A stretch of DNA of 64,000 nucleotides, from sequence record OR515477.1, one strand, 5' to 3'. The stretch's first letter is position 1; each line of letters opens with the position of its first letter. Positions 249-38,512 of this stretch are shown here, one piece after another. Under the pieces are notes generated by a model. The model saw only the letters and a list, made by a program, of their open reading frames with translations. It did no database searches and was not told where the DNA came from. This DNA is from Escherichia phage Es2. A program made the position numbers and the translations under genes.

Positions 249-436
249 AACGATTAGTTAGATTTAAGTGTTGTGGTTCCGAGCACATTTTCACACATCT
301 TCGTGAATTTAAAATGTGTGATTGTGGTAAATCAGGCTATGACTCAGGAGATGGGTTCTACACCCGTACTCTAGGGAACTTCAATGATCTAGAATTTGAA
401 GATCTCGAAAAACAAGATAAACCGACCGTTGGCTGA
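245..436 (+). CDS. hypothetical Cys-rich small protein
   Basis: Track ORF; ATGA overlap with upstream ORF; 3' end overlaps predicted tRNA by about 14 nt. Confidence 0.4.
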   Translation: MKRLVRFKCCGSEHIFTHLREFKMCDCGKSGYDSGDGFYTRTLGNFNDLEFEDLEKQDKPTVG

Positions 437-498
437 ATGGCTTAGGCGAAGGATTGCAAATCCTTTTTATGTGAGTTCAAATCTCATGCGGTCGTCCA
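423..498 (+). tRNA. tRNA-Cys (anticodon GCA)
   Basis: Hand-folded: acceptor CGACCGT/GCGGTCG, anticodon stem AAGGA/TCCTT with loop TTGCAAA, T-arm GTGAG-TTCAAAT-CTCAT, encoded CCA. Confidence 0.65.
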
Positions 499-650
499 AT
501 TTGCTGAAAGAATTGTTAAATCAATTCAGGCACGCGTAGGAACACTGTCTCCGTAATTGAAAGATGAGGCACGGTTTGGAGAGGTATGCCGCTACACGCT
601 ACGGTGCTAACTCCGTCTAGGTGAAAATCCTAGTCAGCAATATAAATTTA

Positions 651-733
651 GGGTCGTTAGCCAAGCGGTTTGGCGGTGGACTGTTAATCCATGTCGAAAG
701 ACAACGTAGGTTCGAATCCTACACGGCCCGCCA
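651..733 (+). tRNA. tRNA, anticodon GTT (Asn-decoding) with unusually long variable arm
   Basis: Acceptor GGGTCGT/ACGGCCC, D stem GCCA/TGGC, anticodon loop CTGTTAA, 13-nt variable region, T-arm GTAGG-TTCGAAT-CCTAC, CCA. Confidence 0.6.
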
Positions 734-835
734 AATTCTGTGTAGAGTTAAGTAAACCGGTAGCCAACCAGCTATCATTGCTGATATCGAATTCAGCCAC
801 AGATACCATTTTCATTAATAACTGAGGAAACAAGC

Positions 836-1021
836 ATGTCCAAGAATGTAATTGCACAGCTAGAAGTTCATCGTGATAACACAGCTAATAACATTAAGTG
901 CCGACAAAAAGATATTGAAGCTCGAAAGGCTGATCTTTTAATGAGTATTCGAGAGCTTAATGTACGGAAAGAGTTTCTTAAAGAACTTAATGCAGCTATT
1001 GAAAAACTCAAAGTTGAGTAA
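836..1021 (+). CDS. hypothetical coiled-coil protein
   Basis: Track ORF with GAGGAAA RBS. Confidence 0.55.
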   Translation: MSKNVIAQLEVHRDNTANNIKCRQKDIEARKADLLMSIRELNVRKEFLKELNAAIEKLKVE

Positions 1022-1030
1022 ATAAATTAT

Positions 1031-1107
1031 GCGACCGGGGCTGGCTTGGTAATGGTACTCCCCTGTCACGGGAGGGAATGTGGGTTCAAATCCCATCGGT
1101 CGCGCCA
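1031..1107 (+). tRNA. tRNA-Asp (anticodon GTC)
   Basis: Perfect acceptor GCGACCG/CGGTCGC, anticodon stem CTCCC/GGGAG with loop CTGTCAC, T-loop TTCAAAT, CCA. Confidence 0.8.
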
Positions 1108-1132
1108 AATTAATTTAGTATGAGAATATACT

Positions 1133-1480
1133 ATGCGTAATGCTAAAGAAGAGTTGTTACTTGCCTTAAAAAATACTAATTCTGAAGTTAAATGTATTAA
1201 AATAGAATTCGGGTATTATGGGGATAAAAAAGTTTGGGTATTACCTTTAGGTTATACAGAAAAAGATATTGAGGATTTTCTTAATAATCTAGACTTTAAG
1301 TACGATTCTGGGTATGGTGGGCAATTACTTTATGGTAATGTATGGTTTGCCGACGGAACTTGGCTAGAACGTGGGGAATACGATGGTGCTGAGTGGTGGG
1401 AGTACAAAGCTACCCCGGAAATTCCAGAGGAATGCCGAACAATTAATGGTGAAGTAGATAATACTTTACTATTAAACTAA
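1133..1480 (+). CDS. hypothetical early protein
   Basis: Track ORF, 115 aa. Confidence 0.55.
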   Translation: MRNAKEELLLALKNTNSEVKCIKIEFGYYGDKKVWVLPLGYTEKDIEDFLNNLDFKYDSGYGGQLLYGNVWFADGTWLERGEYDGAEWWEYKATPEIPEECRTINGEVDNTLLLN

Positions 1481-1872
1481 AAGAATTTCAGTGCAGAACA
1501 CGGAGCTAGCAATTCGGAAGTGCTGACTCATGATAAGCTGCCTATGTACTTGCTAAGCGGTCGTGTCCAAGACTCGGACTCTTGCACTGAAAACAATCAA
1601 ACATTCTAGCGTGGTTGATGGGGAAACCAGCTTGGCTAGGGCAGAAGCTCGTTCGATTCGAGTGAAAGAATGGTTCTCGTAAGTCCGCACAAGTGATAGC
1701 AGGTTCGAGTCCTGTCTAGAATGACACTATAAAGTTTACTTATTATGTAGGTTCCGATAGATCGGCGGGTCTATTCTGGCATTTAAGAGAAGTCTCGCAA
1801 ACTTCTTTGTCAGCCGTGGGGTTGGTAGCCTCCAGGTGGCCTACACAATAAGTAAATTTATTAAAAATTCAT

Positions 1873-1901
1873 TTGCTATTTTTCTTAATTATCTGTATAA
1901 T
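1873..1901 (+). promoter_or_regulatory. early-type sigma70 promoter (TTGCTA - 17 bp - TGTATAAT)
   Basis: -35 TTGCTA at 1873, extended -10 TGnTATAAT at 1894-1901, conserved AT-rich leader and GAGAAGG RBS. Confidence 0.7.
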
Positions 1902-1933
1902 ATATTTTATAAAGTGAAGAGAAGGAAAGCAAA

Positions 1934-2083
1934 ATGAAACACAAGATAGCCCAAGTTTTTATGGCATTATGGTGTATGCCAATAGCTATAACAGCATTTA
2001 ATCTAGATACTTTTACTATAGAAGAAAAATGTATCGGATTAGTTAGCGGCTTTAGTATGCTTGGCTTATCTTTGTTGTGGTTG
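1934..2083 (+). CDS. hypothetical 49-aa hydrophobic peptide (below ORF-track size cutoff)
   Basis: Hand translation MKHKIAQVFMALWCMPIAITAFNLDTFTIEEKCIGLVSGFSMLGLSLLWL; directly downstream of promoter and RBS. Confidence 0.5.
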
Positions 2084-2096
2084 AAGAAATAATATT

Positions 2097-2174
2097 CTCC
2101 GTGTAGCTCAGTTTGGCCAGAGCGTTTCGTTTGGGGCGATAGGGTCGGGGGTTCAAATCCTCCCACGGAGACCA
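2097..2174 (+). tRNA. tRNA-Pro (anticodon TGG)
   Basis: Acceptor CTCCGTG/CACGGAG, anticodon loop TTTGGGG, T-loop TTCAAAT, CCA. Confidence 0.65.
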
Positions 2175-2180
2175 AACAAT

Positions 2181-2258
2181 TGCGGGTTAGATCTCTGGTA
2201 GAGATCGCTAGTCTCATAAGCTAGAAAGAGGTAGGTTCGATTCCTGCACCCGCTTCCA
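2181..2258 (+). tRNA. tRNA-Met (anticodon CAT)
   Basis: Anticodon stem CTAGT/GCTAG with loop CTCATAA, T-arm GTAGG-TTCGATT-CCTGC, CCA. Confidence 0.65.
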
Positions 2259-2278
2259 TTTTAATAGAGGATTTCGAA

Positions 2279-2446
2279 ATGAAAGTATTTCGATTAGTAG
2301 TAAGTGACAAACGGTTAGGTAAGAATACATCAAAATCCCTACTCGCTCATTACGGTAAAAATTGGGATGAAGTAATGGCAGAGTTTAGTACTAATCACCC
2401 TTACTTGAAAGTTCACTCTATTAAAGAAGTATATAATGGTTACTAA
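2279..2446 (+). CDS. hypothetical 55-aa protein (below ORF-track size cutoff)
   Basis: Hand translation MKVFRLVVSDKRLGKNTSKSLLAHYGKNWDEVMAEFSTNHPYLKVHSIKEVYNGY; AGAGGA RBS; sits between two tRNAs. Confidence 0.45.
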   Translation: MKVFRLVVSDKRLGKNTSKSLLAHYGKNWDEVMAEFSTNHPYLKVHSIKEVYNGY

Positions 2447-2447
2447 T

Positions 2448-2526
2448 AGATCGCTAGCTCAATAGGTTTAGTAGCATCCGACTTTTAATCGGAAGGTTCT
2501 GGGTTCGAGTCCCAGGCGATCTACCA
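2448..2526 (+). tRNA. tRNA-Lys (anticodon TTT)
   Basis: Perfect acceptor AGATCGC/GCGATCT, anticodon stem TCCGA/TCGGA with loop CTTTTAA, T-arm CTGGG-TTCGAGT-CCCAG, CCA. Confidence 0.75.
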
Positions 2527-2530
2527 AATT

Positions 2531-2604
2531 GCTCGGTTAGTTTAATGGGAGAACCCCGTCTTTACACGGCGGTTGAGATAGTTCAATTCTATCACCGAGT
2601 ACCA
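2531..2604 (+). tRNA. tRNA-Val (anticodon TAC)
   Basis: Acceptor GCTCGGT/ACCGAGT, anticodon stem CCGTC/GGCGG with loop TTTACAC, T-arm GATAG-TTCAATT-CTATC, CCA. Confidence 0.65.
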
Positions 2605-2623
2605 ATTAACTCAAAATAAGGAA

Positions 2624-2983
2624 TTGCAAATGCAATTATCAAGCAAGATTCAAGGTTATTTCGGTCATGTAACAATGGAGTTCGCTATCTCTAAAGGTTG
2701 GGACTTCGAACAAGATTTAGCTGAGTTCTACAAAGATATTGATCTGAACGTACCGTACATGGGACTTTCTACTGGTCAGGAGATCACAGAAGCCGATGTA
2801 TTCAAGGCAAGTCAAGGTGAGGTAACACCTAGTTTTGCCGAGTTCTGGTTAGGCATTACGTTAAAAGAAGATGCACCAGATAGTGGTGTACTAATGTCTA
2901 GTATGCACTCTGGAAGTTCCGATTACCTTTTCATTAGCGATGTTAAGGAAATACAAGAAGTCTGCAAAAATGTACTTGCTTGA
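2624..2983 (+). CDS. hypothetical early protein
   Basis: Track ORF, 119 aa, AAGGAA RBS. Confidence 0.6.
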   Translation: MQMQLSSKIQGYFGHVTMEFAISKGWDFEQDLAEFYKDIDLNVPYMGLSTGQEITEADVFKASQGEVTPSFAEFWLGITLKEDAPDSGVLMSSMHSGSSDYLFISDVKEIQEVCKNVLA

Positions 2984-3004
2984 TGCTTAATTTCTTGTTA
3001 TAAT
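2976..3004 (+). promoter_or_regulatory. early-type sigma70 promoter feeding the tRNA block
   Basis: TTGCTT - 17 bp - TATAAT; leader contains hairpin GATGAGGAGAAATCCTCATC; no ORF follows, tRNAs downstream. Confidence 0.65.
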
Positions 3005-3242
3005 ATTTATATAAATTGATGAGGAGAAATCCTCATCATAGTTCACTAAGGTATTAGCTCGACCTAGGACTGGCTGCCAAAAAGCACGATCCCTACGATT
3101 CGGGAAAAGTTCTAGATTGGTCCACTAGATTCAGCGGCAACTGAATAGTGTATTGGGTTTGCGAGATGACGTAGTTCCTTCCGCTCTAAGCGAAGGTGCT
3201 GTAGTTACGCCGAGCTAATAGCCTTAGTAAACTAAAGAATTT

Positions 3243-3321
3243 GGGGAATGGGTCTGCATGGAGTGGACACCTCGCTTGCACCGAGGACATCAGAACGGTT
3301 CGATTCCGTTATTCTCCACCA
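3243..3321 (+). tRNA. tRNA-Ala (anticodon TGC)
   Basis: Acceptor GGGGAAT/ATTCTCC, anticodon stem CCTCG/CGAGG with loop CTTGCAC, T-arm AACGG-TTCGATT-CCGTT, CCA; 7-nt variable loop. Confidence 0.65.
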
Positions 3322-3326
3322 AATAC

Positions 3327-3403
3327 GCGTGATTGATGGAATGGGCATACATACCGTCCTTAGAAGTCGGGTTTTGAGGGTTCGAATCCCTTGTCACGCA
3401 CCA
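3327..3403 (+). tRNA. tRNA, anticodon TAG (Leu-decoding) with short variable loop
   Basis: Acceptor GCGTGAT/GTCACGC, anticodon loop CTTAGAA with one stem mismatch, T-arm GAGGG-TTCGAAT-CCCTT, CCA; isotype uncertain. Confidence 0.5.
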
Positions 3404-3515
3404 AATTTGATGGTCAGAGTAAATTAAACCTACTATCTCGGTTGAGCTGTTTTAATGGGTTCGAATCCCAGCGGGGCGTAACTGCCTGGTGTGATAGAGG
3501 CATCATCTTATTATT

Positions 3516-3606
3516 GGAAGAGCAAATCGAATTGGCGACGAAAACCGCTTGGAAAGTGGCTGACTGGTAAAACGGCTTGAGAGTTCAAATCTCTCCTCTT
3601 CCGCCA
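3516..3606 (+). tRNA. tRNA-Ser (anticodon GGA), type II
   Basis: Perfect acceptor GGAAGAG/CTCTTCC, anticodon loop TTGGAAA, long variable arm, T-arm GAGAG-TTCAAAT-CTCTC, CCA. Confidence 0.7.
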
Positions 3607-3618
3607 AACAATTTATAT

Positions 3619-3713
3619 GGTAGGTCAATCCAATGGCTGGCGCTGGACTCCGACTTGAAATCGGTTGATCGTAGTGATACGGTGTAAGGGTTCGATCCCC
3701 TTACCTACCTCCA
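3619..3713 (+). tRNA. tRNA-Ser (anticodon TGA), type II
   Basis: Perfect acceptor GGTAGGT/ACCTACC, anticodon loop CTTGAAA, long variable arm, T-arm AAGGG-TTCGATC-CCCTT, CCA. Confidence 0.7.
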
Positions 3714-4079
3714 AATCTTGAAGTATGCCGGAATCGGTAGACGGGGCTGCCTAAAAGGTTTATAGGGAACATCCACTCCCTGCAACATACCTCATAAAGC
3801 GGCTGAGATAAATGGTCTATCTCGTGAAGGTTCAAGTCCTTCTGCTTCTTGATACATCTATGGCTCAAAGTGTAACGGTGCTATTTGATGCTCTTGGTAA
3901 GACTTCCCCGACATGCGTTCGGGAGTAAGCTGCTAAGACTAGAGTAGAAGAGTTTCTGAGAGCCGCCACAATTGAAAATTCGTACTCGTCTTGAGCTGCG
4001 CGCAATAGGAGATAACTTGATTAGTATTCTAGAACATGCTAATTGAGGAAGGTTTCGCTAACCCTGCGAGTTTTCAATT

Positions 4080-4156
4080 GTGGCTATATCATAATTGGTT
4101 AATGATCCTGATTGTGAATCAGGCCTATGTGGATTCGAATTCCACTAGCCACCCCA
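4080..4156 (+). tRNA. tRNA-His (anticodon GTG)
   Basis: Perfect acceptor GTGGCTA/TAGCCAC, anticodon stem CCTGA/TCAGG with loop TTGTGAA, T-arm GTGGA-TTCGAAT-TCCAC, CCA. Confidence 0.8.
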
Positions 4157-4180
4157 AATTAACTTAAATAGGAAATAAAT

Positions 4181-4387
4181 ATGGCTGATTTCTGCAAACA
4201 ATGCTCCATTGATATGTGGGGTAAAGATACTGGTGATCTTTCTGGTTTGATTACAGAAGCTGAAGTTAAAGAAGGCTACGGTGCTGCTGTGATCTGCGAA
4301 GGATGCGGAGTTATTCGAGTAGATCATGAAGGCAAACGTTTAGAAGATCCAAAAAGTATTAAGAAGAAGGTTAGCCAAGTAGGTTAA
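4181..4387 (+). CDS. hypothetical CxxC-CxxC small protein
   Basis: Track ORF 68 aa, AGGAAA RBS; 3' end overlaps next tRNA by about 23 nt. Confidence 0.5.
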   Translation: MADFCKQCSIDMWGKDTGDLSGLITEAEVKEGYGAAVICEGCGVIRVDHEGKRLEDPKSIKKKVSQVG

Positions 4388-4440
4388 GGCTGGGGTCTCT
4401 GAAATCCTGATCAGTGGTTCGAATCCACTACCTTCTGCCA
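4365..4440 (+). tRNA. tRNA-Gln (anticodon CTG)
   Basis: Perfect acceptor AGAAGGT/ACCTTCT, anticodon loop CTCTGAA, T-arm AGTGG-TTCGAAT-CCACT, CCA. Confidence 0.65.
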
Positions 4441-4446
4441 AACAAT

Positions 4447-4524
4447 TGGGGATTAGCTTAGCTTGGCCTAAAGCTTCGGCCTTTGAAGTCGAGATCATTG
4501 GTTCAAATCCAATATCCCCTGCCA
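4447..4524 (+). tRNA. tRNA-Gln (anticodon TTG)
   Basis: Acceptor (T)GGGGAT/ATCCCCT, anticodon stem TCGGC/GTCGA with loop CTTTGAA, T-arm ATTGG-TTCAAAT-CCAAT, CCA. Confidence 0.65.
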
Positions 4525-4535
4525 GCTAAATTAAT

Positions 4536-4610
4536 GCGTGATTAGTTCAGTGGCTAGAATAACTGGCTTCCAACCAGTAGACACGAGTTCGACTCTCGTA
4601 TCCCGCACCA
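4536..4610 (+). tRNA. tRNA-Gly (anticodon TCC)
   Basis: Acceptor GCGTGAT/ATCCCGC (one mismatch), anticodon stem ACTGG/CCAGT with loop CTTCCAA, T-arm ACGAG-TTCGACT-CTCGT, CCA. Confidence 0.65.
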
Positions 4611-4624
4611 AATAAGGAAACGTT

Positions 4625-4846
4625 ATGCACGTTTTTGAGTTTCGTAATAAAAATACTGATAAGCGAGTTATCATTATTGGAGAAACATACCGAGCATATG
4701 AACAAACTGACGGCTCTGTTATCTTGAATGATGAGAAAGGAGGTTTTAGCTTTTATCCAGAAGAACCTTATGAAGAGTTTCGTACTAAGTTTCTTTTACC
4801 AGACTGGCTAGCAGTAGCCGAGCAACGAGAATCCGAAGATGGCTGA
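4625..4846 (+). CDS. hypothetical early protein
   Basis: Track ORF 73 aa, AAGGAAA RBS. Confidence 0.55.
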   Translation: MHVFEFRNKNTDKRVIIIGETYRAYEQTDGSVILNDEKGGFSFYPEEPYEEFRTKFLLPDWLAVAEQRESEDG

Positions 4847-5003
4847 TAACCTAAAATTAAGGGTCGACAAACAAAAGAAATACATTGAGGTTGAATTAGG
4901 CGAAGAACGATTAAAGCTAACTTTCGAGTTTCTTCAGCAGTTGGCTATGACAGTTATGACTGATAAGTCTCCTGTTATTGAAAAAGAAATCCCGTTGAAA
5001 TAA
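4839..5003 (+). CDS. hypothetical 54-aa protein (below ORF-track size cutoff)
   Basis: Hand translation MADNLKLRVDKQKKYIEVELGEERLKLTFEFLQQLAMTVMTDKSPVIEKEIPLK; start overlaps upstream stop (ATGGCTGA). Confidence 0.45.
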   Translation: MADNLKLRVDKQKKYIEVELGEERLKLTFEFLQQLAMTVMTDKSPVIEKEIPLK

Positions 5004-5013
5004 CGGGATCATC

Positions 5014-5088
5014 GCTCCTAAAGCATTGCTGGCGATGCAGTTGCCTTGTAAGCATCTGAACCGGGTTCGATTCCTGGTGGGAGCACCA
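5014..5088 (+). tRNA. tRNA-Thr (anticodon TGT)
   Basis: Acceptor GCTCCTA/TGGGAGC, D stem GCAT/ATGC, anticodon loop CTTGTAA, T-arm CCGGG-TTCGATT-CCTGG, CCA. Confidence 0.65.
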
Positions 5089-5103
5089 AATTTAAAAATT
5101 CAT

Positions 5104-5132
5104 TTGCTTTCTCTCTTATTTATTGTTATAAT
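5104..5132 (+). promoter_or_regulatory. early-type sigma70 promoter
   Basis: TTGCTT - 17 bp - TATAAT, then conserved leader ATAAATTAATGAGAGG. Confidence 0.7.
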
Positions 5133-5162
5133 ATTCATATAAATTAATGAGAGGGAAGCCAA

Positions 5163-5456
5163 ATGAAACGTTATCTTTCTGTTGTGTTCCAAACTGGTGG
5201 TCAACGCTATACTTACGAATTTCCTGGCTCTTGGAAGATCAAAGAAGGTGATCAAGTAGTAGTGTTAACACCGCGTGAGGGTTTTAAGGTAGTAACGGTT
5301 AAGCAAGTATTTCCAAAAGAGCGTGAACCAGCTAAAGGCATTCGCTATAAGATGATTCATGGTGTAGTTCGTCAAGTACCACGAGCGGAAGTCGAAATCA
5401 AAGTAGATAAAGATGGTAAACTTAAATATACCTCTTGCTTAGACGAGTTGCTATAA
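5163..5456 (+). CDS. hypothetical early protein
   Basis: Track ORF 97 aa, promoter and RBS upstream. Confidence 0.6.
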   Translation: MKRYLSVVFQTGGQRYTYEFPGSWKIKEGDQVVVLTPREGFKVVTVKQVFPKEREPAKGIRYKMIHGVVRQVPRAEVEIKVDKDGKLKYTSCLDELL

Positions 5457-5662
5457 TGAGGATTACTTTTACAGAAAAGATCATGAGTAATGGTGTTATG
5501 ATCATTACCGCATGGGATGGTAATCAGTGGTGTAGTGTTTCAGGTATTAAGCCTGAAGAACAAACACTAGATAATATCTCAAAGATTAAGCGAAGAATGA
5601 CAGAACGTGCACGACTTCCAGGTGCACCTAGAAATGGCAAACGTTCTGCTGCAAAATGTTAA
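5456..5662 (+). CDS. hypothetical early protein
   Basis: Track ORF 5435..5662 trimmed to in-frame ATG at 5456 that overlaps upstream stop (TAATG). Confidence 0.5.
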   Translation: MRITFTEKIMSNGVMIITAWDGNQWCSVSGIKPEEQTLDNISKIKRRMTERARLPGAPRNGKRSAAKC

Positions 5663-5663
5663 T

Positions 5664-5740
5664 GCTTCGGTAGCTTAGCGATCTAAAGCACTCGGCTGAT
5701 AACCGAGAGATCGGGGGTTTAAATCCCTCCCGGAGTACCA
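5664..5740 (+). tRNA. tRNA-Ile (anticodon GAT)
   Basis: Perfect anticodon stem CTCGG/CCGAG with loop CTGATAA, T-loop TTTAAAT, CCA. Confidence 0.65.
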
Positions 5741-5836
5741 AATTTAGGAATTAAGACTATGCGTCCAGGAAAGTTTAAAAAAGCTAATTGGTCTAAAGAG
5801 TATAAAGAATACTTACTTAGTCTAGTAAAACATAAT

Positions 5837-5912
5837 AGTTAGTTGGCAGAGTGGTTATGCACCTCCTTCATACGGAGCGACTACAGTGGTTCAAATCCAC
5901 TACTAACTACCA
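5837..5912 (+). tRNA. tRNA-Met (anticodon CAT), second copy; initiator/elongator/Ile2 not resolved
   Basis: Perfect acceptor AGTTAGT/ACTAACT, anticodon loop TTCATAC, T-arm AGTGG-TTCAAAT-CCACT, CCA. Confidence 0.65.
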
Positions 5913-32505: not shown

Positions 32506-33240
32506 ATGAGTCAAGTTAAAACGAATATTACCCGCTCTTTCCCGCATATTTCCCGCGTTATGATTTGGGATCTGGACGGCACTATCATTAATTCTTTCCA
32601 TCGTGTAGCGCCTTGTTTTGATAGCGAGGGCAATTTAGATTTAAATAAATATAAAAATGAAGCCTGCAAACATCATTTAATAATGCAGGATTCATTATTG
32701 CCATTAGTTGAATATATGCGCCAGTGTATGAATGACGCTAACACGTTAAACATTATTTGCACCGCTCGACTGATGAGCAAGTCAGATTATTATTTCTTGC
32801 GTAAACAAGGATTGCGGGGGCGTGGAAATAGCAATATCCGCGTGTTTTCCCGCGATACCCTGCACAAATACTTTAAAGCTGATAAAGTTAGCGAGATATA
32901 CCACAGTAAGGACGCAGTTTATAAATCTTATTATTTTGAATTATTTAAACAATTATATCCGAACGCTGATTTTACAATGATTGATGATCATAAAGGCGTG
33001 TTAGCGGCGGCGGCATCATACGGATTTAAAACGCTGGACGCACAAGCCGTTAACGATATTCTATCAATCGGTGTTACATTGATTGGTGAAACCTTTATTG
33101 ATGAATCGCTCGACGATGATAATGATTATCAGTTCCTAGCAGACCGCCTGCAATTATGTTGGGAAGGTATGACCGAGGAAGAACGCGCAGAATATAGTTG
33201 CAGTCCTCAACAGTACATCGAGAAATTAAAAGTTGCATAA
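32506..33240 (+). CDS. dmp: 5'-deoxyribonucleotidase, HAD family
   Basis: 244 aa; HAD motif I IWDLDGTIINS; size and position match my recollection of T5 dmp. Confidence 0.75.
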   Translation: MSQVKTNITRSFPHISRVMIWDLDGTIINSFHRVAPCFDSEGNLDLNKYKNEACKHHLIMQDSLLPLVEYMRQCMNDANTLNIICTARLMSKSDYYFLRKQGLRGRGNSNIRVFSRDTLHKYFKADKVSEIYHSKDAVYKSYYFELFKQLYPNADFTMIDDHKGVLAAAASYGFKTLDAQAVNDILSIGVTLIGETFIDESLDDDNDYQFLADRLQLCWEGMTEEERAEYSCSPQQYIEKLKVA

Positions 33241-33397
33241 TAATTAAAGTTGAAATAGTCACGGTGTGTAATGATAACATGCCGTGACTATTAGTCTGCT
33301 AAGTACCGGGCGGTAATGAGACTCATTCTCATCTGGTGGGCCACTGGACACACCTCCATGTGTAATCTTATGAAATTTGGCAAAAAGGTAATTAGCG

Positions 33398-33601
33398 CTA
33401 TTTACGGACTGACTGCTCAAAGACTTCCCGCCACAGAGGGTCAGTCTTAACTAGATTATTAATATGCTCAATAGCTTCATCAAATCTCATGAATCCTTCC
33501 GGGATTTCCGAAGACTTAGGAAAAACTTGCAGCATCTCCTGTGTGATACCCATCTTTTCAAGATCTTCTTGGGTTAACTTAAACTGTCCGAATTCTTTCA
33601 T
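33398..33601 (-). CDS. hypothetical protein
   Basis: Track ORF 67 aa. Confidence 0.5.
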   Translation of the reverse strand: MKEFGQFKLTQEDLEKMGITQEMLQVFPKSSEIPEGFMRFDEAIEHINNLVKTDPLWREVFEQSVRK

Positions 33602-33843
33602 GAACTTCTCCTGTCTACCGGCTTATCTCCAGATTCTGACATACGAAATCTCTTTCGTGACGCCCGAGAACCGTCCGCCCACTCCCTCTCAAACTCCGCA
33701 CGTTTCTTCGCAAACCTCCGCTCTCTTTCCGCAATCTCCCGCGACACTTCCGCAATATATTTACGATGCGTATTAATAGCCGCAGTCATTCCGAAAACTC
33801 CCGCGATTACCCCGATAATAAAAGCAATTACAATACTAAACAT
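33598..33843 (-). CDS. hypothetical single-pass membrane protein with charged tail
   Basis: Track ORF 81 aa; N-terminal TM helix then Arg/Glu-rich region. Confidence 0.5.
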   Translation of the reverse strand: MFSIVIAFIIGVIAGVFGMTAAINTHRKYIAEVSREIAERERRFAKKRAEFEREWADGSRASRKRFRMSESGDKPVDRRSS

Positions 33844-34030
33844 CTAGTTCTCTCTCAATTTGCAGAATACGAGTGCTATCACAACGTTGCAATTCTACTA
33901 ATTTTTCTATAGCAAATTGTTGTTGTTTTACCTGGGCCTCTAGAGTTTTTAGGCGAACGTACACGGTGTAAGAAATAATGAAAGCTGACCAAACTGCTAG
34001 TACTATTAATATAGCTACTACTTCCATCAT
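33836..34030 (-). CDS. membrane micro-protein, paralog c
   Basis: Track ORF 64 aa MMEVVAILIV...; TM helix plus coiled-coil tail; ATGA overlap with paralog b. Confidence 0.5.
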   Translation of the reverse strand: MMEVVAILIVLAVWSAFIISYTVYVRLKTLEAQVKQQQFAIEKLVELQRCDSTRILQIERELDV

Positions 34031-34134
34031 TTACGTTTCTCCAGTAACAGAGTTTCAATTCTAGCTAAGTGGTTATCTAAAATACATTGCCCGATAATCA
34101 CAATCCCTAGTAGTGCAATAATTACCCATTCCAT
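34027..34134 (-). CDS. membrane micro-protein, paralog b (35 aa)
   Basis: Hand translation MEWVIIALLGIVIIGQCILDNHLARIETLLLEKRK; below track cutoff. Confidence 0.45.
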   Translation of the reverse strand: MEWVIIALLGIVIIGQCILDNHLARIETLLLEKRK

Positions 34135-34289
34135 TGTTTACGCTCCTCTAATAAAATTTCAATCCTAGATAATCTGTTACTCAACTGCATTAATTTAGCT
34201 TCTACTTGTGTTATAGAGGTATCTATTACACGTAAGCCTACAAAGAGAAGTATCAGTAAGATGAATATGCCAATAATTACCCATTCCAT
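34122..34289 (-). CDS. membrane micro-protein, paralog a (55 aa)
   Basis: Track ORF 34122..34319 trimmed to MEWVIIGIFILL start that overlaps upstream stop (TAATG). Confidence 0.5.
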   Translation of the reverse strand: MEWVIIGIFILLILLFVGLRVIDTSITQVEAKLMQLSNRLSRIEILLEERKQWNG

Positions 34290-34480
34290 TAAATCCACCC
34301 CGCCATAGCTGCTAACCAAAAACCTACGAAAATAAAGAATAGGATAGTTCCGAACCCAAAACTATTTATCCAGCTATCATATACCTCTCCACGTCTGCTC
34401 TTTCTTTTGTTTGACATATCTTTCATGCTCCTATAAATGTGATTTTTGAAATATTCTATAATTTGTGCACAACCGACCAT
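34289..34480 (-). CDS. hypothetical membrane protein
   Basis: Track ORF 63 aa; C-terminal hydrophobic segment. Confidence 0.5.
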   Translation of the reverse strand: MVGCAQIIEYFKNHIYRSMKDMSNKRKSRRGEVYDSWINSFGFGTILFFIFVGFWLAAMAGWI

Positions 34481-34593
34481 GCCTGTGAACTCATAGAAGG
34501 ACTTCTACTTTTCTTACATAGTGGTTTCTGCCAATATACCATCCAAGAAATAAAAAATTTAGTTTACTTGGATGTCTTTTTGTTTTATACTAA

Positions 34594-34860
34594 TTACAGG
34601 TAATTAGATTGCTCTAGTTTAAATTTACAATCACCGTATTTAAGGTCAAACTGACTGAGATCCCACCACCCAAACTTAGTACGGAGCTGTACTACTGGAA
34701 AGCGATCTCCCTTAATACGAACTTTTTGAACCTTGAGGCCGTAATGTTCCTCTCCAGCACCACCAAAAGATTTTACAAACCCCGTACAAAATGGTTTGGG
34801 GGCAGGTGCACAACCAGATAACATAACTGCGGCAACTAGTGCAATCACAAACTTTTTCAT
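34594..34860 (-). CDS. llp: Llp-like lipoprotein (candidate receptor-blocking lytic-conversion protein)
   Basis: 88 aa; signal peptide with lipobox LSGC; divergent from the receptor-binding protein gene. Confidence 0.65.
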   Translation of the reverse strand: MKKFVIALVAAVMLSGCAPAPKPFCTGFVKSFGGAGEEHYGLKVQKVRIKGDRFPVVQLRTKFGWWDLSQFDLKYGDCKFKLEQSNYL

Positions 34861-34945
34861 ATTTATCTCTCCATTTCTAATTTATGAATCTATTATAGCA
34901 AAATAGAGAGATGAAAGCAAATACATTTTTATAATAGGAGATTAT

Positions 34946-36703
34946 ATGGGTTTTTTCGCTGGAAAATATAGCGATGGTAAGACCGTACTATCTTTAAATA
35001 CTGAATCTGGTGGTGACATTAATCGTCACTATAGCCCAAATGCCAATAGTATTTTTCATAGTGATATGCCATTTGTCCTAGTTGATGGTACTTACGAGGC
35101 TGGGTTAGGTAATGCCGGGAATGGGTTTTTTGTATGTCAAATGCCCTCTGACATAATAAATATTAAATCTAATGACCCGGGTAGAGTTATACTAACTGCT
35201 ATTGAAATTAATGGTACTCACAGAGCTTTTCTTAATGGTACTCAGAGTAAGGTTGGTCAAACTATAGTTGCCACTCAGGCAGACCCCTTTAGGTCTTTTG
35301 CCAGTGTTTCTCAAACCAGTGGATTTGCATTTGGTAATAGTCTAGCATCTGGCACTTATAACTACAACCCCTCTCTAGGGCATGAAGAATCTATCTCTAG
35401 AAGTGGCACAGGGGGTACTACGTTACATAGTACGTATCATGGTATAGTTAGGCCCGGTGGTGGAGCACCTGTAGGAGTTACTGTTGCAGAAGCCTTTGCA
35501 CAATTAGGTTTTCCTACTAATAGTAGCACAGTACCTGTAGATGGTAATAACCCATACTATTGGGATCCTGGATGGATGGCTCCTCTAGGAGCAGCATATA
35601 GGGGGCATGATTGGTTTTATGTTTGCAATTCTAATATACGTGGATATGGTGGGGTTAGGCAAGGGCTCCCTGGTAATGTAAATACTATGTACCATGATGG
35701 TGGTAATAGATTTGTTTGTAGAGGGTCTACTACTAATTTAGCTAACCAGTCGGGTGACTCTACAATACTACAGGACTGGTATAATATAACTCCTACTAAG
35801 GTTATTTGGTATGTTCTTAATTTAAGGTACTCAAATGGTGGAATGAGTATTTCAGGTAACCCTTTCACTGGTTCTGATATTCTTATATCTCCTTCTAATT
35901 TTATAATTAAAGGGGTAAGTCTCCCTAATACCGGGTATAAATTTATTAATCAGAATGCTTTTGGTAACCTAGGTTACCGTCCTGATATGGAGTATATAGG
36001 GAATAACGCTGCGTATACTGGGGTTTTTGGGGATACCACTGCAAGGTGTGAACTTGTAGGATCTAGTAATGGAGGGTTGTGGTCTCCTGTAGATTATGGA
36101 GGTGCCAAATCACAGATTAGCATTTACAAATTTGGAGCAGGTAAACAGTGGTATGTAAACTCTAACGATAATACTATTGGTAATGAGCATGGGGTTGTTT
36201 GGGGACCATCAGCAGTTCCATTACGACTTTTTGGAGGAAATGTAGGTAGCTCTTACATGGGGGATGATATTACTCCTAGCTATCCAGGAACTGGGGATAG
36301 GTACGTTGGTTTATCAACTATTGGGCTAGGTATACCTGGTGGCAATGCTACAGTAATTCTTACTACTGAAGTTATATCAGGTAATCTTAACTGTGCAGGT
36401 GTCCCAGCTAACACATGGAATAATGGTGTGTTTCAAGTACAAGGAAGAAAAGCGCATAGTTATAGTAATGGAGATGCAATATTCCACCAGATTCTAACGC
36501 TACCTGTGGGCTATCTAGTACCTTTTCATACTACAGCAGCTTTTAGATACACCCCTAATAATGCTTTAAGCAGGAATAGTTTTATATATACCGCTAAAAA
36601 CCTAGGAAATGGAAATGTAGAGTTAGGGGTAGTTATGCATGTCAGTTTAGGTAGTGCAGTTTTCTTACCTAGACTAAGAGTAACAGTTCAACGCCTTACC
36701 TAA
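34946..36703 (+). CDS. oad: receptor-binding tail protein (pb5-like)
   Basis: 585 aa, Gly/Asn-rich; position next to llp and before terminase; receptor identity not determinable here. Confidence 0.65.
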
Positions 36704-36713
36704 AGGAGGAAAT

Positions 36714-37196
36714 ATGGCAAATGATGTACTAGTACCAGATCTTATGTCCCCTGAAGGGATGGATGTGATTGAAGCTTATTTACAGTGCGGCAGCGATGTG
36801 CCTTCTGCCGCACGTAGTCTTGGAATGTCCGAAATTGCTTTCCGAGATATTATGAATCGTAGTGAAGTTAAGAACTACTTAAATGATATTTTTATGGAGA
36901 GTGGTTTCCGTAATAGGGATCGTTTATTTGGTGTTCTAGATGAAGTTATTAAACGTAAGCTAGAGGAGCTAGAAGAAACTGGCATGGGTTCTGACCAAGA
37001 TATTATGGATATTCTCTGGAAAGCACATAAAATGAAAATGGAAGAAATGAAGATGATGGTAGAGTTGGAAAAAGCTAAAGCTGCTGTCCGTGCTCCTGCT
37101 AATCAGACCAATATTCAGAATAACATTATTGCTGGAGCTGGGGATCAAAACTACATGGATTTAATTACTTCCCTAGCTACTGGAGGTAAAAAGTAA
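36714..37196 (+). CDS. terminase small subunit
   Basis: 160 aa, directly upstream of and overlapping the large terminase gene. Confidence 0.7.
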
Positions 37197-38512
37197 TGGA
37201 AGTATCAAGACCCTATGTTAATACAGTAGACGTTATTGACTTCGGAATAGATAAACGTTTCTTCCGTCTACCTGTTTCAGGAATACTAGCACAAGAGGGT
37301 ATTACACCTAATGGTCCTCAAATAGCAATTATTAATGCACTAGAAGACCCTAGACATCGTTTTGTAACAGCGTGTGTGTCACGTCGTGTAGGCAAATCCT
37401 TCATCGCATACACACTTGGGTTTCTAAAATTGCTGGAACCCAATGTGAAGGTGTTAGTAGTTGCCCCTAACTATTCACTGGCTAATATTGGTTGGTCACA
37501 GATTCGTGGTCTTATCAAGAAATATGGGCTACAAACAGAACGTGAGAACGCTAAGGATAAAGAGATTGAGTTAGCTAATGGTTCTCTATTTAAACTAGCT
37601 TCTGCAGCGCAGGCTGACTCCGCAGTTGGACGTTCATATGACTTTATCATTTTTGACGAAGCTGCAATTTCTGATGTAGGTGGTGATGCTTTTAGAGTTC
37701 AGTTGCGACCTACTCTGGATAAGCCTAATTCTAAGGCTCTGTTTATCTCTACTCCTCGTGGTGGTAACTGGTTTAAAGAGTTTTATGCCTACGGATTTGA
37801 TGATACGCTACCTAACTGGGTATCTATTCATGGTACATATCGTGATAACCCTCGTGCCGACCTGAATGACATTGAGGAAGCACGTCGTACTGTTAGTAAA
37901 AACTACTTCCGCCAGGAATATGAGGCTGATTTCTCTGTATTCGAAGGACAGATCTTTGATACCTTTAACGCTATCGATCATGTTAAAGACCTCAAAGGTA
38001 TGCGTCACTTCTTTAAAGATGATGAAGCATTCGAAACATTACTTGGTATTGACGTTGGTTATCGTGATCCTACGGCAGTTCTTACTATTAAATATCATTA
38101 CGATACAGATACTTACTATGTATTAGAAGAGTACCAGCAGGCGGAGAAAACTACAGCTCAACATGCCGCTTATATTCAGCACTGTATAGATCGTTATAAT
38201 GTAGATCGTATCTTTGTTGACTCTGCAGCAGCTCAGTTCCGTCAGGACTTAGCTTATGAACATGAAATTGCATCAGCTCCAGCTAAAAAGTCTGTCCTAG
38301 ATGGCCTAGCATGTTTGCAAGCGCTATTCCAACAGGGTAAGATTATTGTAGATGCTTCATGTTCCTCCCTAATTCATGCATTGCAGAATTATAAGTGGGA
38401 CTTCCAAGAAGGCGAAGAGAAATTATCACGTGAAAAACCACGTCATGATGCTAACTCTCACCTTTGTGATGCACTGCGCTATGGAATTTACTCTATTTCC
38501 CGTGGTAAATAA
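37196..38512 (+). CDS. terminase large subunit
   Basis: 438 aa; Walker A-like RRVGKS and Walker B DFIIFDEA. Confidence 0.85.
   Translation: MEVSRPYVNTVDVIDFGIDKRFFRLPVSGILAQEGITPNGPQIAIINALEDPRHRFVTACVSRRVGKSFIAYTLGFLKLLEPNVKVLVVAPNYSLANIGWSQIRGLIKKYGLQTERENAKDKEIELANGSLFKLASAAQADSAVGRSYDFIIFDEAAISDVGGDAFRVQLRPTLDKPNSKALFISTPRGGNWFKEFYAYGFDDTLPNWVSIHGTYRDNPRADLNDIEEARRTVSKNYFRQEYEADFSVFEGQIFDTFNAIDHVKDLKGMRHFFKDDEAFETLLGIDVGYRDPTAVLTIKYHYDTDTYYVLEEYQQAEKTTAQHAAYIQHCIDRYNVDRIFVDSAAAQFRQDLAYEHEIASAPAKKSVLDGLACLQALFQQGKIIVDASCSSLIHALQNYKWDFQEGEEKLSREKPRHDANSHLCDALRYGIYSISRGK

Follow-up and report, generated by a model that had tools for sequence, protein, structure and literature searches.

The divergent gene pair at positions 34,594 to 36,703 of the window (the whole 64,000-nt stretch of Escherichia phage Es2 DNA analysed here, OR515477.1) forms, as judged with high confidence from sequence comparisons, a T5-like host-recognition module of the BtuB, or BF23, type. 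One gene, llp, encodes a predicted receptor-blocking lipoprotein (Llp) and the other a receptor-binding protein (RBP). The locus is an ordinary member of its kind, since the T5/BF23 module, the BtuB receptor class, the function of Llp, the mosaicism and this RBP sequence (GenBank WNL62850.1) are all already known. The same kind of module has been described for BF23, DT57C, SPC35 and EPS7, as well as for many annotated T5-like phages.

Gene order and control region

The window was classed as a T5-like phage (Tequintavirus, Demerecviridae). More than 100 T5-like phages match the locus and the surrounding 24 kb with 92–94% nucleotide identity, and the nearest full loci in the phage collection show approximately 94%. 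Both open reading frames (ORFs) of the preliminary description, an 88-aa lipoprotein with an LSGC lipobox and a divergent 585-aa gene, were recovered at the same coordinates, with divergent start codons separated by 85 bp (Table 1). The order of small membrane-protein ORFs, llp, divergent RBP gene, terS and terL is that of the annotated T5, BF23, DT57C and SPC35 loci.

Table 1. Features of the locus and its surroundings, in window coordinates
Feature	Position	Strand	Description
tRNA genes	423-5912		16 genes, left end of the window
dmp-like ORF	32506-33240		735 nt, shortly ahead of the module on the llp side
63-aa ORF	34289-34480	minus	Directly downstream of llp; PHROG 8596 (unknown function)
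llp	34594..34860	minus	88-aa precursor of a predicted BF23-type outer-membrane lipoprotein for receptor blocking (lytic conversion, superinfection exclusion)
Llp signal peptide and lipobox	34810..34860	minus	Signal peptide aa 1-16, lipobox L14-S15-G16-C17 (from the translation)
Divergent control region	34861..34945		85 bp between the llp and RBP start codons
RBP gene (pb5/Oad/Hrs homologue)	34946..36703	plus	585 aa, BtuB-binding group by sequence
RBP gene start (~280 nt)	34946-35220		Conserved start of the gene
Most divergent RBP part	35243..35755	plus	~aa 100-270
Second variable RBP stretch	~36539-36580		Near aa 532-545
Antisense ORFs within the RBP gene	35192-35314, 35617-35868, 36280-36414		Treated as by-products of ORF listing
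terS	36714-37196		PHROG 3802, 1.2e-90
terL	37196-38512		Assigned by position in the annotated T5, BF23, DT57C and SPC35 loci

Four short ORFs of 63–81 aa lie window-upstream of llp and are positional counterparts of T5.159-162, which are genes for single-transmembrane proteins; one of their PHROG matches is labelled 'membrane protein' and the other three are of unknown function. The 63-aa ORF next to llp encodes a hydrophobic C-terminus; its counterpart in phage JLBYU40 is named 'putative receptor blocking protein', and in the VSe12 record the match covers two features named 'receptor-blocking protein'. The ORF gives this label no support, as it lacks a lipobox and neither PADLOC nor NCBIfam returned a family for it. 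An Rfam scan of positions 33000-38000 gave no family match.

Two observations concern the layout of the record. By position and length, the ORF preceding the llp side of the module corresponds to dmp (5'-deoxynucleotidase) of BF23 and Bas34, a gene that sits in the terminal repeat of T5-like phages. With this ORF beside the module and the tRNA genes at the left end, the record looks circularly permuted and seems to contain the terminal repeat only once.

The 85-bp spacer is nearly identical, with 0–2 differences, in BF23, DT57C, SPC35, SPLA5b and Cit2. Inspection by eye of the llp strand revealed TTGCTT (34920-34915), a 17-nt spacer and TATAAT (34897-34892), followed by the Shine-Dalgarno sequence GGAGAG; on the RBP strand, a Shine-Dalgarno sequence AGGAG (34936-34940) is located 5 nt ahead of the ATG. 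We infer that the TTGCTT-17-TATAAT arrangement is a putative sigma-70-like promoter for llp, which would fit early transcription by the host RNA polymerase. A scan for consensus promoters and terminators called none inside the spacer, because TTGCTT matches only three of the six positions of the -35 hexamer, and the two sites that it did find are no more than expected by chance. Back-to-back promoters are annotated in the T5 record and, as predictions, in the BF23 record.

Receptor class and mosaic structure of the RBP

The RBP matched PHROG 4815, 'receptor binding tail protein', over residues 1-585 (3.2e-274) and has homologues in 540 phage records, indicating that its ORF is a real gene. It also matched the solved T5 pb5 chains 8b14_B and 8a8c_B (E = 1.3e-50). 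Alignment to T5 and BF23-type proteins, which the preliminary description had proposed as a check, bore out the homology: in Blastp comparisons the protein is 30% identical over its full length to the FhuA-binding T5 pb5 (E = 8e-57), whose size is indeed 640 aa, as given in the preliminary description, and it is 67.6% identical to BF23 Hrs. A receptor other than FhuA had been suspected from the smaller size of the RBP, with BtuB among the options named. BtuB is indeed supported by the RBP identities, but length does not serve as a marker of the receptor, because the RBPs of phages that use BtuB themselves vary in length (595 aa in BF23 and SPC35, 586 aa in DT57C).

In pairwise comparisons, identities within the BtuB group were 74% to DT57C, 72% to SPC35, 70% to Bas34 and, as given above, somewhat lower to BF23, as compared with 27.7% to the protein of the FepA phage H8. 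Grouping by pairwise identity thus places the RBP with those of BtuB phages, apart from the FhuA and FepA types. Equating the 585-aa protein with that of BF23 was ruled out by the length and identity of BF23 Hrs.

The translated sequence is exactly WNL62850.1 and belongs to a 585-aa subclass with approximately 100 phage records at 90% identity or higher, which includes phiLLS, Cit2, chee24, Bas31 DaisyDussoix, SPLA5b and Es2, with 95–98% identity. Bas31 DaisyDussoix falls in the same 90% cluster as our RBP, and the RBP of Salmonella phage SPLA5b is 98% identical to it (571 of 585 residues). For SPLA5b, a TraDIS transposon screen identified btuB as the susceptibility gene, and deletion of btuB left the phage unable to form plaques (PMC10949491); BtuB is also given as the terminal receptor of Bas31 in the BASEL table. 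From this close identity to a btuB-dependent phage, together with the Bas31 listing, the terminal receptor of the RBP is very probably BtuB. The probable BtuB assignment is useful for the design of phage cocktails, in which loss of btuB would lead to cross-resistance with other T5-like phages.

A published analysis of Citrobacter phage Cit2 leads to a different receptor. There, the Cit2 RBP is described as 96.9% identical to the 'T5' RBP, and both are grouped in a tree (PMC12980165), so that the 585-aa class would bind FhuA and the BtuB-type Llp encoded beside it would be a mismatched exclusion protein. We consider this very unlikely. The published figure failed to reproduce, as Blastp of the Cit2 RBP (OP745948, 1294-3051) against T5 pb5 (NC_005859) gave 30% identity, whereas the same protein is 97% identical to our 585-aa RBP and hence to the class that contains the btuB-dependent SPLA5b and Bas31. 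FhuA as the receptor of the Cit2 RBP class was rejected on these grounds, and the published assignment is probably wrong; the comparison flags a likely error in the literature for this RBP class.

Nucleotide identities mark the RBP gene as a divergent recombination cassette whose flanks are nearly identical. In comparisons with BF23, DT57C and SPC35, identity was 96–100% for llp and the intergenic region and 89–99% for terS, as against 43–84% for most of the RBP gene. The start of the gene (first ~280 nt) differs from the remainder, with 94–99% identity to SPC35 and 74–80% to BF23 and DT57C, and the first 100 residues of the protein are 100% identical to those of SPC35. Identity drops sharply near position 35220 against all three phages, suggesting an intragenic recombination breakpoint. 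The conserved N-terminal part ends there and is presumed to be the tail-attaching end. Such a mosaic relationship of Hrs beside a conserved llp has already been described for DT57C versus BF23 (PMC4728585).

Binned protein and nucleotide identities both located the most divergent part of the RBP at approximately aa 100-270, which, from this pattern, is likely the main receptor-specificity region. A second variable stretch, near aa 532-545, contains a 7-residue deletion relative to BF23. Consistent with this distribution, HMMER aligned only aa 1-110 and 270-531 to T5 pb5. In T5, the pb5 loops inserted into FhuA are L1 (tip Gln115), L2 (tip Phe170) and L4 (570-590) (PMC9586334). The RBP shows four indels with respect to BF23 and SPC35, three of which fall roughly at the positions of L1, L2 and L4, the mapping being approximate at 30% identity. 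With about 32% divergence from BF23 Hrs and indels at positions corresponding to the contact loops, the details of binding may differ between the two proteins. Our finding that the indels of the 585-aa subclass lie at predicted receptor-contact loops would go slightly beyond the sources consulted.

The same features could be read as a sign of another or an additional outer-membrane receptor, such as FepA or a protein that is not TonB-dependent, contacted by loops that differ from those of BF23, SPC35 and DT57C; the greatest divergence and the indels do lie in aa 100-270 and in the counterpart of T5 L4. This is nevertheless highly improbable, given the low identity to the FepA-type RBP of H8 and the btuB dependence of SPLA5b, whose RBP is nearly the same protein. 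DT57C further illustrates that BtuB can still be used at a divergence of approximately 30% from BF23 Hrs (PMC4728585). Moreover, the neighbouring Llp is still identical to the BtuB blocker of BF23, a state that selection should not maintain after a change of receptor. We therefore retain BtuB as the very probable receptor.

The lipoprotein and its relatives

The N-terminus of Llp (MKKFVIALVAAVMLSGC) combines a signal peptide with a lipobox (Table 1). The Pfam model LPAM_1, for a lipoprotein lipid-attachment site, matched residues 1-18 with 23.9 bits, over a cut-off of 20 bits, and both G16 and C17 are invariant among 12 homologues; from these features, the mature protein would begin with a lipidated Cys17. 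Under the sorting rule of the Lol pathway, Ala at position +2 after the lipidated Cys directs lipoproteins to the outer membrane. Llp contains Ala at this position, and sorting to the outer membrane is therefore predicted.

The 88-aa protein matched PHROG 1119 (1.8e-26) and has homologues in 401 phage records, with at least 99% identity in 75 cases, indicating that llp is a real gene and not a chance ORF; 281 contigs carry exactly this sequence. Llp of BF23 (OR083247) and the protein of BASEL phage Bas34 match it at 100% identity, and those of SPC35 and of DT57C, the latter differing by one residue, at 98.9%. According to later accounts of Mondigler et al. (2006), BF23 Llp blocks BtuB on infected cells (PMC4728585, PMC10644984). 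When the cloned llp from DT57C was leakily expressed, DT57C, DT571/2 and BF23 plated more than 100-fold less well, whereas T5 was unaffected (Golomidova et al., PMC4728585). The idea of a receptor-blocking Llp paired with its cognate RBP, as put forward in the preliminary description, is upheld by the synteny of the locus, by the identity to BF23 Llp and by the 98% identity of the RBP to that of SPLA5b.

Scans of Llp and RBP against Pfam, NCBIfam and PADLOC returned nothing except the lipobox, and families were found only in PHROGs. This lack of a family in the first three databases, together with the small size and the signal peptide, which are shared with outer-membrane spanin subunits, might indicate that the lipoprotein acts otherwise than in receptor blocking, for instance in lysis as a spanin-like protein or as a generic envelope lipoprotein. 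We regard this as extremely improbable, because exclusion of BtuB phages is reported both for the identical BF23 Llp and for the DT57C protein one residue away. The protein also matches the Cor/Llp profile family, with a marginal likeness to the T5 Llp fold, and its gene adjoins that of the RBP, with no lysis genes among the ORFs examined in 33000-38500. A receptor-blocking function thus remains the favoured reading.

RBPs with at least 60% identity were found in approximately 397 phage records and Llp proteins with at least 60% identity in approximately 394; from these similar totals, the RBP type and the Llp type appear to travel together. Salmonella phage S124, with an FepA-type RBP, is reported to have an Llp grouping with that of DT57C (PMC12980165), which, if true, would be a real mismatch of RBP and Llp.

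The literature considers BF23 Llp and T5 Llp as non-homologous (PMC4728585, PMC10644984). With signal peptides removed, however, mature Llp (72 aa) matched PHROG 1119 at 2.6e-16 over profile positions 17-78, and mature T5 Llp matched the same profile at 1.4e-11 over positions 17-77. Cys17, Cys25 and Cys78 are invariant in the 12 homologues, with C25 and C78 corresponding to mature positions 9 and 62. T5 Llp contains a lipidated Cys1 and a Cys11-Cys58 disulfide tying its termini (PMC9586334), and the cysteine spacing of the BF23-type protein parallels this pattern. By analogy with T5 Llp, we infer a Cys25-Cys78 disulfide in Llp.

At the level of the fold, the predicted small beta-barrel of Llp resembles T5 Llp only marginally, in a model built from a shallow alignment, as a search of a large protein database with Llp retrieved only 11 close clusters (58–99% identity) and did not reach Cor or T5 Llp. 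A phmmer search of the PDB with Llp did not find T5 Llp either, its best results being chance matches such as ovomucoid (E = 0.2), and the relationship is therefore visible only at the profile level. A Blastp match between the Llp precursor and that of T5 (E = 1e-4) was dropped as evidence of homology, because both signal peptides were included.

Together, the profile matches and the cysteine pattern suggest that the BF23-type and T5-type Llp are distant homologues. We lean, with some reserve, towards a common origin of BF23-type Llp, T5 Llp and Cor, the first being a true homologue that has diverged and not an unrelated analogue as held in the literature. In that case, one ancestral family of periplasmic 'jamming' lipoproteins would have been retargeted from FhuA to BtuB. 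One invariant Llp would then block BtuB for RBP subclasses that are approximately 30% apart and have different receptor-contact loops, closing a shared BtuB surface by reverse allostery. This relatedness, at the profile level and marginally at the fold level, would also go slightly beyond the sources consulted.

Proposed mechanism and comparison with known systems

In T5, the tail-tip protein pb5 inserts its loops into the receptor lumen. T5 Llp, an early periplasmic protein, binds the FhuA plug in a non-native conformation and causes the extracellular loops EL7 and EL8 to fold inwards, over the site of pb5. BtuB, the vitamin B12 transporter, is a TonB-dependent transporter like FhuA, with a plug and known allostery. 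We found no structure of BtuB-Llp or BtuB-RBP in searches of the PDB and the literature, and the blocking mechanism on BtuB is thus an analogy.

On this model, the RBP would sit at the end of the straight tail fibre and bind BtuB irreversibly, and binding would trigger DNA ejection. By analogy with the timing in T5, llp would be expressed early in infection and the RBP gene late. Llp would then be exported, lipidated at Cys17 and closed by the Cys25-Cys78 disulfide. With its anchor in the inner leaflet of the outer membrane, it could bind the periplasmic face of BtuB and lock the transporter in a state that the RBP cannot bind ('reverse allostery'). The periplasmic binding and the reverse allostery on BtuB are modelled on the crystal structure of T5 Llp with FhuA. 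Blockade of BtuB would exclude superinfecting BtuB-dependent phages and prevent the loss of progeny on cell debris. Both BtuB dependence and Llp-mediated exclusion are carried over here from the literature on identical or nearly identical proteins. This Llp, identical to the BF23 protein, could serve to obtain a BtuB-Llp structure, testing the generality of the reverse allostery described for T5.

Related known systems include the Cor proteins of the FhuA-dependent phages T1, phi80, N15 and HK022. Like Llp, these are small outer-membrane lipoproteins that confer superinfection exclusion by inactivating a TonB-dependent receptor, and PHROG 1119 itself is named 'Cor superinfection exclusion protein'. 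T5 Llp and Cor share approximately 20% identity and a disulfide (van den Berg et al., PMC9586334). In our only comparison with a Cor, the 'Cor' of phage grams gave a weak tblastn match to Llp (33.8% identity, E = 7e-4). Unlike Llp, Cor targets FhuA, and its genes are located downstream of the tail-tip J genes in small siphoviruses or prophages.

The T5 oad (pb5)/llp pair, directed at FhuA and with structures available for FhuA-pb5 (8B14, 8A8C), FhuA-Llp (8A60) and Llp (7QJF), has the same architecture and likewise precedes the terminase genes. Homology of the RBP to pb5 extends over the full length and is strongest at aa 1-110 and 270-531, and the two Llp proteins share PHROG 1119 and the cysteine pattern. 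In contrast, our RBP is 55 aa shorter, with the low identity given above, and its receptor is very probably BtuB and not FhuA; infection by T5 is not blocked by Llp of the DT57C/BF23 type (PMC4728585).

The hrs (oad)/llp pair of BF23, directed at BtuB (OR083247), shares the divergent layout, a nearly identical intergenic region, the same Llp (100% at the protein level, 98% in nucleotides) and a terS with 97% nucleotide identity, and differs in Hrs, which has 595 aa instead of 585, 67.6% identity and four indels. SPLA5b and the rest of the 585-aa subclass have the same Llp and RBPs that are only a few substitutions apart.
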